From a virus (lineage: Duplodnaviria; Heunggongvirae; Uroviricota; Caudoviricetes), in IMG/VR virus record IMGVR_UViG_2778261569_000001, positions 1 through 11,600 of that record: DNA of 11,600 nucleotides. One strand, written 5' to 3'. A program made the position numbers and the translations under genes. Within the stretch, counting starts at the first letter, position 1. The number at the start of each line of letters is the position of its first letter. Positions 1,167 through 4,512 of this stretch are shown piece by piece. Under the pieces are notes generated by a model, which saw nothing but the letters and a program-made list of their open reading frames with translations, had not been told where the DNA came from and made no database searches.

Positions 1167-1351
1167 ACGCCACAATTCAAACGATACCAGAGCTTCTTAT
1201 ACAGACACGAGGCAATCAGACCGAAGTGGCGAGGATGCTTTCCTGCGCAAGAGGAACGGTGCTCAAGTACAACCGAGACAGCAAAGGCGAACGTCACGTA
1301 ATAGTTAACGGCGTCCTGATGGTCAAACAGGGCAAGAGAGGAAGACGATGA
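1163..1351 (+). CDS. ninH: NinH-like protein
   Basis: 62 aa; IPELLIQTRGNQTEVARMLSCARGTVLKYNRDSKGERHVIVNGVLMV matches the recalled lambda NinH pattern (YGNQTEVARRL...RGTV.KY...HAIVNDVLMV). Overlapping start/stop codons with both neighbours. Confidence 0.75.
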   Translation: MNATIQTIPELLIQTRGNQTEVARMLSCARGTVLKYNRDSKGERHVIVNGVLMVKQGKRGRR

Positions 1352-1971
1352 GACTCGAAAGCGTAGCTAAATTTCATTCGCCAAAAAGCCCGATGATGAG
1401 CGACTCACCACGGGCTACGGCTTCTGACTCTCTTTCCGGTACTGATGTGATGGCTGCTATGGGGATGGCGCAATCACAAGCCGGATTCGGAATGGCTGCA
1501 TTCTGTGGTAAGCACGAACTCAGCCAGAATGACAAACAAAAGGCTATCAACTATCTGATGCAATTTGCACACAAGGTATCGGGGAAATACCGTGGTGTGG
1601 CAAAGCTTGAAGGAAATACTAAGGCAAAGGTACTGCAAGTGCTCGCAACATTCGCTTATGCGGATTATTGCCGTAGTGCCGCGACGCCGGGCGCAAGATG
1701 CAGAGATTGCCACGGTACAGGCCGTGCGGTTGATATATCAAAAACAGAGCTGTGGGGGAGAGTTGTCGAGAAAGAGTGCGGAAGATGCAAAGGCGTCGGC
1801 TATTCAAGGATGCCAGCAAGCGCAGCATATCGCGCTGTGACGATGCTAATCCCAAACCTTACCCAACCCACCTGGTCACGCACTGTTAAGCCGCTGTATG
1901 ACGCTCTGGTGGTGCAATGCCACAAAGAAGAGTCAATCGCAGACAACATTTTGAATGCGGTCACACGTTAG
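1348..1971 (+). CDS. Q: Late gene antiterminator Q (lambda type)
   Basis: 207 aa, the same length as lambda Q, and the translation appears near-identical to recalled lambda Q, including the Cys cluster CRDCHGTGR...CGRCKG (zinc finger). Followed by a pR'-like promoter. Confidence 0.9.
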   Translation: MRLESVAKFHSPKSPMMSDSPRATASDSLSGTDVMAAMGMAQSQAGFGMAAFCGKHELSQNDKQKAINYLMQFAHKVSGKYRGVAKLEGNTKAKVLQVLATFAYADYCRSAATPGARCRDCHGTGRAVDISKTELWGRVVEKECGRCKGVGYSRMPASAAYRAVTMLIPNLTQPTWSRTVKPLYDALVVQCHKEESIADNILNAVTR

Positions 1972-2013: not shown

Positions 2014-2055
2014 TTGACTTTTTGAATAAAGTTGGGTAAATTTGACATCAACGAT
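2014..2055 (+). promoter_or_regulatory. Late promoter pR' with qut element and promoter-proximal pause signal
   Basis: TTGACT at 2014-2019, 17-bp spacer, TAAATT at 2037-2042; AACGAT at 2050-2055 corresponds to the -10-like pause-inducing element of lambda pR'. The region is near-identical to recalled lambda pR'/qut. Confidence 0.7.
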
Positions 2056-2078
2056 GGATAAATGCACTCGTTAAATAA

Positions 2079-2114
2079 AGCCCTGAGTTAATAGCTCGGG
2101 GCTTTTTGCGTTTT
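2079..2114 (+). terminator. Intrinsic terminator (tR'-like) ending a short pR' leader RNA
   Basis: Stem AGCCCTGAG (2079-2087) pairs with CTCGGGGCT (2095-2103) over 9 bp with one G-U, 7-nt loop, then TTTT-GCG-TTTT. It lies about 30-60 nt downstream of the predicted pR' start. Confidence 0.7.
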
Positions 2115-2250
2115 AATCACGACCTTTCTGAAAGCACATCAAACCAAATACCAGACAGACAAAAATAATCACCTTATCCGCTGTGGCTACGGTGCGGTGT
2201 GCTTTGCATAAAAGAAAACCAGCGCAATGGCTGGCTTCGTGAAAGCGGGT

Positions 2251-2286
2251 GGCAAGAGGTTGCGCTAACAACCTCCTGCCGTTTTG
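2251..2286 (+). terminator. Terminator-like hairpin between tR' and S
   Basis: GGCAAGAGGTT (2251-2261) pairs with AACCTCCTGCC (2270-2280): 11-bp stem with one mismatch, 8-nt loop, followed by GTTTTG. Function uncertain (second terminator or RNA structure). Confidence 0.35.
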
Positions 2287-2385
2287 CCCGTGCATATCGG
2301 TCACGAACAAATCTGATTACTAAACACAGTAGCCTGGATTTGTTCTATCAGTAATCGACCTTATTCCTAATTAAATAGAGCAAAT

Positions 2386-2405: not shown

Positions 2406-2729
2406 ATGAAGATGCCAGAAAAACATGACCTGTTAGCCGCCATTCTCGCGGCAAAGGAACAAGGCATCGGGGCAATCCTTGCGTTTGCAATGGCGTACCT
2501 TCGCGGCAGATATAATGGCGGTGCGTTTACAAAAACAGTAATCGACGCAACGATGTGTGCCATTATCGCCTGGTTCATTCGTGACCTTCTCGACTTCGCC
2601 GGACTAAGTAGCAATCTCGCTTATATAACGAGCGTGTTCATTGGCTACATCGGTACTGACTCGATTGGTTCGCTTATCAAACGCTTCGCTGCTAAAAAAG
2701 CCGGAGTAGAAGATGGTGGAAATCAATAA
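2406..2729 (+). CDS. S: Holin S (class I; S107 antiholin from Met1, S105 holin from Met3 at 2412)
   Basis: 107 aa [34 protein letters not shown]... essentially the lambda S sequence; dual-start motif Met-Lys-Met; predicted transmembrane segments. Confidence 0.9.
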
Positions 2730-3189
2730 TCAACGTAAGGCGTTCCTCGATATGCTGGCGTGGTCAGAGGGGACTGATAACGGACGTCAGAAAACCAGAA
2801 ATCATGGTTATGACGTCATTGTAGGCGGAGAGCTATTCACTGATTACTCAGATCACCCTCGCAAACTTGTCACGCTAAACCCCAAACTCAAATCAACAGC
2901 TGCAGGCCGTTACCAGCTTCTTTCCCGTTGGTGGGATGCCTATCGTAAGCAGCTTGGCCTGAAAGATTTCTCTCCGAAAAGCCAGGACGCTGTGGCATTG
3001 CAACAGATTAAAGAGCGTGGCGCTTTGCCGATGATTGATCGCGGTGATATCCGTCAGGCAATCGACCGTTGCAGCAATATCTGGGCTTCATTGCCGGGAG
3101 CTGGTTATGGTCAGTTCGAGCATAAGGCTGACAGTCTGATTTCAAAATTCAAAGAAGCAGGCGGAACGGTCAGAGAGATTGAGGTATGA
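2713..3189 (+). CDS. R: Endolysin R (lytic transglycosylase)
   Basis: 158 aa [24 protein letters not shown]... matches lambda R, including the catalytic Glu in WSEGT. Start overlaps the S 3' end; GGAG at 2703-2706. Confidence 0.9.
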
Positions 3190-3623
3190 GCAGAGTCACC
3201 GCGATTATCTCCGCTCTGGTTATCTGCATCATCGTCTGCCTGTCATGGGCTGTTAATCATTACCGTGATAACGCCATGACCTACAAAGAGCAGCGCGATA
3301 AAGCCATATCCATCATCGCTGATATGCAGAAGCGTCAACGTGATGTAGCAGAACTTGACGCCAGATACACAAAGGAGCTTGCTGATGCTAACGCGACTAT
3401 CGAAAGTCTCCGTGCTGATGTTTCTGCTGGTCGTAAGCGCCTGCAAGTCGCCGCCACCTGTGCAAAGTCAACGACCGGAGCCAGCAGCATGGGCGATGGA
3501 GAAAGCCCAAGACTTACAGCAGATGCTGAACTCAATTATTACCGTCTCCGAAGTGGAATCGACAGGATAACCGCGCAGGTTAACTACCTGCAGGAATACA
3601 TCAGGACGCAATGCCTTCGATGA
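3186..3623 (+). CDS. Rz: Rz i-spanin
   Basis: 145 aa; the N-terminal TM anchor [30 protein letters not shown] matches lambda Rz, followed by a coiled-coil-like periplasmic domain whose C-terminal half diverges from lambda. ATGA overlap with the R stop. Confidence 0.8.
3385..3570 (+). CDS. Rz1: Rz1 o-spanin (outer-membrane lipoprotein) embedded in Rz in the +1 frame
   Basis: ATG 3385 preceded by AAAGGAG at 3371-3377. 61 aa [27 protein letters not shown]... with signal peptide, lipobox LVVSAC and a Pro-rich segment. It lies entirely inside Rz. The track ORF 3355..3570 is the same frame with an earlier start. Confidence 0.7.
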
Positions 3624-3797
3624 TAGCGATAATTTTACTCATCATCCTTCACATCTAGCTCTGTAGACAGGGTGATGATCACTTCTGGAGTGAATCCAGA
3701 TTAAACATCTCATTGCTGATGCTTGATATTGAGCATCTGGCGCGCGGTAAGGGGCTGCGTTGAGATAAGAGCCAGTCATTACAAATACCAGGATTTA

Positions 3798-3821
3798 GCC
3801 TCGCATTTGCGGGGCTTTTTT
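3798..3821 (+). terminator. Intrinsic terminator downstream of Rz
   Basis: GCCTCGC (3798-3804), loop ATTT, GCGGGGC (3809-3815): 7-bp GC-rich stem with one G-U, followed by TTTTTT (3816-3821). Confidence 0.6.
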
Positions 3822-3969: not shown

Positions 3970-4512
3970 ATGAACTACCCAACCGTTGTTAACGATATAG
4001 ATTTCAGAGACCTAATTTTTGTAGCAAACAACGATCCGGTTACAGATTCTTTTATGGTGGCAAAAGCATTTGGAAAGCTGCCGAAGAACGTGGTTCGTGA
4101 CATTGAACGAACCATAGAAGCTTGCCCTCCTGAGTTTGATACAAAGCTCAACTTTGAGCTTTGCTATAAAAACAATGAGTTACAGAATGGTAAGCCGCAA
4201 AAATTCTACCGTCTCCGCAAGGATGGGTTGATGCTTTTGGTTATGTCCTACACCAAAAAAGAAGCAATGCGTATCAAAATTGCTTACATCAACGCATTCA
4301 ACTGGATGTACGCCATGCTTCAGGTTGGTCATCGTCAATTTGAAGAAGAGAGAAATGCCGTAATGCTGGAGTACATGAAAGAGAAGGATGTTGCCAGCAT
4401 GTCAGGCCGCCTGCTTAATCGCTGGGGAAAAATTAAGAAGCCTCAGCTACTGGCGAGAATTGAACGCCTTGAACAGCACGGGCAAACCGTAATCCCCGGA
4501 CTCACCAATTAA
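3970..4512 (+). CDS. rha: Rha family phage regulatory protein
   Basis: 180 aa; the N-terminal domain matches the Phage_pRha pattern (..VAKAFGK...NVVRDIER......EF...NFE......G.....YRLRKDG.MLLVMSYTKKEA...K.AYINAFN.M). It occupies the position of P22 orf201/rha between the lysis genes and terminase. Confidence 0.7.
   Translation: MNYPTVVNDIDFRDLIFVANNDPVTDSFMVAKAFGKLPKNVVRDIERTIEACPPEFDTKLNFELCYKNNELQNGKPQKFYRLRKDGLMLLVMSYTKKEAMRIKIAYINAFNWMYAMLQVGHRQFEEERNAVMLEYMKEKDVASMSGRLLNRWGKIKKPQLLARIERLEQHGQTVIPGLTN

Follow-up and report, generated by a model that had tools for sequence, protein, structure and literature searches.

The window analysed here, a stretch of 11,600 nt, was found to contain the nin-Q-lysis-head region of a P22-like lambdoid prophage. 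According to its ORF list and Pfam matches it encodes YbcO, RusA, NinH, a Q protein of the lambda family, a lambda-type holin S, R and Rz, along with a Rha-like antirepressor, a small terminase of the Sf6 type, a large terminase and a portal protein. Over the full window the nearest sequences were Kapi1, CUS-3 and their relatives, at 83-84% coverage and about 97% identity. Gene Q (1348-1971, plus strand) codes for a late antiterminator of 207 aa (PF03589 Antiterm, E = 1.2e-57) which is nearly invariant among 108 related loci. The first late genes, controlled by Q by homology, occupy 2406-3623 on the same strand and comprise the S holin (2406-2729), the R endolysin (2713-3189) and Rz (3186-3623). 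Pfam matches in these lysis genes were to Phage_holin_3_1 and Phage_lysis; R gave no Pfam match, and in the annotation of an identical prophage of E. coli O111 it is a protein of glycoside hydrolase family 24.

Some further signals were observed around these genes. Within Q, on the minus strand, a terminator-like hairpin lies at 1393-1411, where the P22 record annotates the terminator of the a23 antisense RNA, and a TTGC-N6-TTGC motif lies at 1635-1648, where the same record annotates the C1-activated a23 promoter; this antisense promoter of P22 is the equivalent of lambda paQ. After Rz, inside the late operon, a strong terminator-like hairpin of 8 pairs followed by TTTTTT is present at 3797-3816 (plus strand), and downstream of it lies the Rha/ORF11CD3 antirepressor-like gene (3970-4512, plus strand). 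Together the two give a moron-like layout reminiscent of anrP in Gifsy-1.

The interval between Q and S carries the signals for late transcription. Scanning located the late promoter pR' at 2014-2042 (plus strand), with a -35 hexamer TTGACT (2014-2019), a spacer of 17 bp and a -10 hexamer TAAATT (2037-2042). Of its 29 bases, 27 agree with lambda pR' and all 29 with the sequence annotated as 'P late or P R'' in P22, and the HK140 and mEp records label the matching sequence as PR' promoter. The Q-binding part of qut, TTTTGAATAAAGTTGGGTAAA, was recognised between the -35 and -10 elements (2020-2040, plus strand) by its similarity to lambda Qut; set against the lambda Qut string given in the records of mEp234 and HK140, it has two changes in 21 positions, both of them also present in P22. 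Further downstream is the -10-like, sigma-70-dependent pause element AACGAT (2050-2055, plus strand), identical in lambda and P22, whose first A is the RNA 5' nucleotide in the P22 record. By analogy, the transcript most likely starts at A2050, possibly at C2049, and a pause is predicted near C2065/A2066 (+16/+17).

These signals are followed by an intrinsic terminator, tR' (2077-2114, plus strand), which was identified through scanning, folding and homology and consists of a stem-loop at 2077-2105 and a T-run at 2103-2107, then GCGTTTT. The stem has 13 pairs, 6 of them G-C, with a G-C core at 2080-2102 and a 3-nt loop AAT, and it was both the best terminator site and the longest terminator-like stem of the window. 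Predicted folding energies are -19.1 kcal/mol for the hairpin (z = -4.9), a stability that none of 200 shuffled sequences reached, and -23.4 kcal/mol for the whole leader (z = -4.0). The initial annotation, which had placed a strong terminator at 2079-2111 and expected a short RNA of about 55-60 nt, agrees well with this, as the terminated RNA predicted from the sequence extends from A2050 to 2107-2110 (58-61 nt) and the terminator annotated in P22 ends 59 nt from +1.

The leader, AACGATGGATAAATGCACTCGTTAAATAAAGCCCTGAG...CTCGGGGCTTTTT, ends about 58-60 nt from +1 and is identical or nearly so in 75 related loci. The terminator stem is almost invariant across these loci, with the loop alone varying while the stem is kept, and hence covariation support for it is unobtainable. 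Its annotated counterparts are 't late or t R'' in P22 and 'rho-independent terminator' in Emek. Immediately 3' of the T-run, the related loci fall into at least four unrelated sequence classes, one of which is the post-tR' sequence of lambda, joined at slightly different points. Comparison of these sequences indicates that tR' is the last element of a conserved Q-qut-tR' module, placed before a mosaic joint; and as some phages join the short terminator directly to the post-tR' sequence of lambda, the comparison also speaks for a position equivalent to that of lambda tR'.

Consensus scans taken alone carried little weight: the window gave 4 promoter-like sites where 11.6 were expected and 14 terminator-like sites where 11.4 were expected, neither count being significant. 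It is homology instead that indicates that the pR'-tR' unit is no chance match, since 68 phage records and hundreds of E. coli genomes contain homologous units that share 95-100% identity with it. Of the components of a lambda-type Q antitermination cassette, a Q gene, a promoter with a Q-binding element, AACGAT and an intrinsic terminator ahead of the lysis genes are present.

Downstream of tR', the read-through leader contains a structured segment (2126-2225, plus strand), which from sequence and coordinates of P22E, alignment and RNAalifold was found to be the homologue of P22E, a plus-strand RNA of 101 nt that is abundant in P22-infected cells. Across 12 variants RNAalifold recovered 33 pairs, 5 of them with compensatory double changes, and all of the compensated changes split the P22 lineage from the HK022 lineage. 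An imperfect direct repeat of 12 nt, CTTTCTGAAAGC (2124-2135) and CTTCGTGAAAGC (2235-2246), flanks the segment. Lambda has a single copy of this repeat (CATGACCTTCGTGAAAGC), as if the segment of ~100 nt were an insertion, and at the analogous position it has a different long stem, the apical part of which is the target of the LPR2 probe. Loci L018 and L040 have a further insert of ~270 nt with a small ORF inside the P22E-like segment. A second G+C-rich hairpin of 12 bp, followed by GTTTTGCC, was detected as an inverted repeat at 2251-2288 (plus strand), about 120 nt upstream of S; it is shared with lambda upstream of S (locus L004, 1229-1265) and may act in the late leader either as a back-up terminator of low strength or in processing. 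The minus-strand ORF at 2113-2310, a 'hypothetical protein' in E. coli records, was rejected as a gene since it is interrupted by stops in P22, and a plus-strand ORF at 2199-2354 is annotated in HK140. No tRNA genes were found in the leader, though some lambdoid phages have them there.

As the leader had been described as much shorter than that of lambda, we compared the two in detail. In lambda, +1 of pR' is at 44587 and the T-run of tR' ends near 44780, giving a leader of 193-194 nt, and an independent paper places the termination site at +193; the figure of roughly 190 nt given for 6S RNA in the initial annotation was accordingly sound, and the alignment makes clear that lambda does not have the arrangement of the window. 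Positions +1 to +8 are identical in both, +9 to +17 carry four substitutions and +18 to +23 (CTCGTT) are again identical, and beyond +23 the sequences are unalignable apart from a loose resemblance of both terminators, in keeping with the divergence soon after the pause region that had been noticed earlier. Among these substitutions are GGA in place of the lambda GGG at +7 to +9 and A in place of the lambda G at +17, which could weaken or shift the pause. The window therefore resembles lambda in its Q family, its promoter, its Q-binding site, AACGAT and positions +18 to +23, and in the logic of a constitutive promoter followed by an intrinsic terminator that Q suppresses. It differs in leader length and in its terminator, as lambda has a larger, two-tier hairpin of -26.9 kcal/mol; in addition, tR' and S stand about 400 nt further apart in lambda, with orf-64 and the LPR2 region lying between them.

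The closest match to the short leader is that of P22. On the matching sequence, the P22 record BK000583 annotates 'P late or P R'', qut and the RNA 5' nucleotide, and further 't late or t R'; antiterminated by gene 23 protein'. The window and P22 are identical in the 29-bp promoter, in AACGAT and in the leader to +23 and beyond, they have the same terminator stem, T-run and leader length, and they share a Q protein of 207 aa of the lambda family and a P22E-like structured segment downstream. P22 differs in the sequence preceding the pause element, in its terminator loop (TTTAACCG against TTAATAG in the window), in the post-terminator segment, which is only about 75% similar, and in having lysis genes of another type. 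P22 gp23 and lambda Q have been reported to be of the same specificity and mutually substitutable. The proposal of a constitutive pR' whose very short leader, with its sigma-dependent pause element, stops at an intrinsic terminator unless Q loads at qut and reads through finds support in homology.

Other phages carry the same arrangement. The Emek record annotates a qut site and the HK140 and mEp records annotate Qut beside the PR' promoter. The Q-to-S interval of 434 nt is matched at 80% coverage or more by 68 phage records, including ECP1, HK140, HK106, mEp234, HK544, Sf101, HK022, HK97 and Emek, and identity ranges from 94.7 to 98.4% among the matches listed at this coverage, which include the viable ECP1, HK140, HK022 and HK97. 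Over this interval HK97, HK022, HK140 and the mEp phages are 94.7-98.2% identical to the window and have lambda-type S and R downstream; they differ in being siphoviruses with other head and tail modules, and most of them have TTGACT or TTGACC upstream of AACGAT with a spacing of 1 bp. In a passage of Sy et al. (PMC7547250), short RNAs regulated by antitermination are cited from the late promoters of phages 21, phi80, 82 and P22, the one from the P22 late promoter being cited from 1976. The short leader is the standard P22/HK022/HK97 form and was already known, and the novelty implied for it by the initial annotation does not stand, as the same unit is annotated in P22 and is about as common as that of lambda.

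To gauge how common the two forms are, IMG/VR was scanned for the lambda-type qut string, which gave at least 119 loci, known phages included; with the annotated records and the window, this made 126 sequences. Among the matches listed, the lambda-type qut was followed by the short leader in 77 of these 126 and by the lambda leader in 49, figures that describe a sample and not a prevalence. About 329 of 5,426 complete E. coli genomes, roughly 6%, have the short leader and about 416 have the lambda leader. The species distribution of the leader as drawn from a one-genome-per-species collection was discarded as uninformative, since 22 of its 24 matches were lambda-type leaders suspected to be contaminants. 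These lambda-type leaders (among loci L127-L150) were mostly on short or low-coverage contigs from unrelated taxa, including Kitasatospora, Paenibacillus and Segatella MAGs, and 21 of them had the promoter-proximal sequence of lambda itself; laboratory lambda DNA contamination is the most likely source of lambda-type leaders in such unrelated assemblies.

Having determined the sequence anatomy, homology, distribution and predicted RNA fold of the region, we read it as the late-gene antitermination cassette of a P22-like prophage with a lambda-type Q, in the common short-leader form, and give this reading a probability of about 0.88. If start site, pause, termination efficiency and Q dependence are taken over from P22 and lambda, the cassette would work as follows. 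The sigma-70 RNA polymerase would start constitutively at pR', most likely at A2050, and would pause at about +16 when sigma region 2 re-binds to the -10-like AACGAT. When Q is lacking, the polymerase would resume, stop at the hairpin and U-run and free an RNA of 58-61 nt, and this termination at tR' would keep the lysis and morphogenesis genes off. Q, supplied by the early right operon, would bind between the -35 and -10 elements and contact sigma region 4 repositioned on TTGACA, and together with NusA it would form a nozzle on the RNA exit channel, threaded by a transcript of 12-16 nt. A polymerase modified in this manner would be unable to form the hairpin that starts at +28/+31 and would read through into S, R, Rz and the head genes.

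These steps follow what has been described for lambda. There sigma engages AACGAT when the RNA is about 13 nt long and the pause falls at +16/+17, and the 5' end of the RNA threads the nozzle formed by Q-lambda with NusA at 12-16 nt. Complexes modified by Q exit the pause by scrunching, from about +17 to +28. Q bound between -35 and -10 contacts the repositioned sigma region 4 upstream of the pause element (PMC9388147). A long leader is not needed at any point of the Q-lambda mechanism; by analogy, with the stem starting here at +28/+31 and release near +58, the polymerase would be modified before any hairpin could form.

We next asked what else the short RNA might do. A trans-acting regulatory role of the ~60-nt RNA, made constitutively in lysogens as StxS and IsrK are and adding to the function of the cassette, appears doubtful to us, though it has precedents in StxS of Stx phages, in IsrK of Gifsy-1 and in lambda 6S RNA, which is Hfq-bound and has a few targets. 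The predicted fold would suit such a role, in that a weak stem at the 5' end is joined by an A/U-rich single-stranded linker (UAAAUAAA) to the terminator hairpin and its U-tail, although the tail has only 5 uninterrupted U. The transcribed sequence is also almost invariant across mosaic phages, but this would be expected in any case, because +1 to about +25 is bound by pause and Q-escape signals and the rest is terminator. A search of the window for targets complementary to the single-stranded part of the leader returned only the self match. Moreover, the short leader is absent from the ten abundant phage RNAs reported in a small-RNA survey of P22-infected cells, a survey which sampled lytic infection, with Q active; its absence there counts against the short RNA of the main reading as well. 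StxS and IsrK resemble the leader in being prematurely terminated transcripts of antitermination-controlled phage promoters that are present in lysogens; they differ in belonging to other Q families and show no sequence similarity, and RNase E produces StxS, of 74 nt, from a leader of 258 nt. That the ~60-nt RNA of the P22/HK97 type is regulatory in lysogens in the way of StxS is a proposal we hold at the same low level.

At gathering thresholds no Rfam family was found anywhere in the window. A permissive search gave only isrJ (RF01393) at 2035-2105 (plus strand), a match to an Hfq-binding RNA that would favour a regulatory role, but its score of 28 bits lies below the family cut-off of 37 and its E of about 0.001-0.003 refers to a search of a few hundred bases. 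The likeness to isrJ, a 74-nt Hfq-binding RNA of Gifsy-1, covers the full length of the model and includes the 5' string GUAAAU-UGA-AUC--CG, the terminator hairpin and the setting in a prophage late region. In Gifsy-1, however, the 5' string is made from an upstream promoter of its own (TTGCAA-17-TATATT), whereas here it overlaps the -10, and the Gifsy-1 RNA follows an antirepressor-like gene and not Q, lying downstream of antQ-isrK-orf45-anrP. Membership in isrJ was rejected on account of the score, the separate promoter and the different context.

The position of the hairpin raises another explanation, by which it mainly ends the early right (Q) transcript or insulates the late region against read-through from nin and Q, the short RNA being incidental. 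Counting from Q, whose stop codon lies 106 nt before it, the hairpin is the first terminator, and polymerase arriving from Q without N-modification would stop there too. Against this, the hairpin is separated from Q by the promoter, qut and pause element, with which it forms a single conserved unit, and in P22 the terminator is annotated as belonging to the late promoter. We regard it as unlikely that ending the Q transcript is the main role; it is compatible with the late-leader role, but secondary to it.

The late antitermination cassette of the window carries a departure from both lambda and P22. Conservation of the -35/-10 and AACGAT with lambda had been claimed at the outset, and it holds for the two elements themselves (27 of 29 promoter bases, AACGAT identical) but not for the joint between them, where the alignment reveals an inserted A2047 which the initial annotation overlooked; because of this 1-bp insertion the promoter-proximal region is not strictly lambda-like. 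The window has TTGACATCAACGAT where lambda and P22 have TTGACTCAACGAT, so that TTGACT-C-AACGAT becomes TTGACA-TC-AACGAT. The insertion falls in a -35-like element (2042-2047, plus strand), the putative site of sigma region 4 in the Q-loading complex as judged from alignments with lambda, P22, HK022, Emek and HK140. In lambda this element stands 1 bp upstream of the pause element. With A2047 it becomes a perfect TTGACA, standing 2 bp instead of 1 bp upstream of AACGAT, and 1 bp is also added between the -10 and AACGAT. The sigma region 4 site has been placed immediately upstream of the pause element (PMC9388147).

An insertion affecting both the sequence that sigma region 4 contacts and the spacing of that sequence might suggest a decayed cassette, in which A2047 disables the correct start, pausing or Q loading and the late switch is dead. 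Five E. coli O111 genomes are the only ones with copies of the 131-nt promoter-terminator unit at 100% identity; the one of them that was inspected is E. coli O111:H- 110512 (NZ_AP019761, locus L006), where IS1203 insertions disrupt the prophage, one of them lying within the DnaB-like helicase gene, and the erf gene is truncated. That copy of the prophage is probably defective and, because IS1203 disrupts an O111 prophage with the identical unit, the copy in the window may lie within a defective prophage as well. Decay of the switch itself is nevertheless very improbable, because the plaque-forming phage HK97 carries exactly the same variant. Apart from the window it is also present in 12 further loci, which represent four or more flanking haplotypes and all have the short leader, and Q shows no compensating or degenerative change, no residue of it being found to co-vary with the insertion among the related loci. 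As HK97 is viable with the identical sequence, the A2047 variant is probably functional. A separate proposal, that the TTGACA-plus-2-bp variant shows Q-lambda loading to tolerate a shifted sigma region 4 site, is put forward only tentatively and with low confidence.

Lastly, the idea that the hairpin is a bidirectional terminator whose main job is to stop leftward (antisense) transcription from the late region is scarcely credible, since, for all that its A-rich left flank (AAATAAA) gives the minus strand a hairpin followed by TTTATTTAAC, this minus-strand tail is interrupted after 3 T and the conserved T-run is that of the plus strand, and to the right of the hairpin neither genes nor conserved ORFs run leftward, the minus-strand ORF of the read-through leader being broken in P22.

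The late antitermination cassette described here is a textbook regulatory cassette in the form annotated for P22 and common to HK97, HK022 and many prophages, and as such it has little discovery value. Its use lies in annotation, where it shows at which point the late operon of a P22-like prophage begins and that the 194-nt leader of lambda has a short counterpart, both forms being common. The natural variant with 1 bp of added spacing, which HK97 has also, bears on the recent structures of the Q-lambda loading complex.
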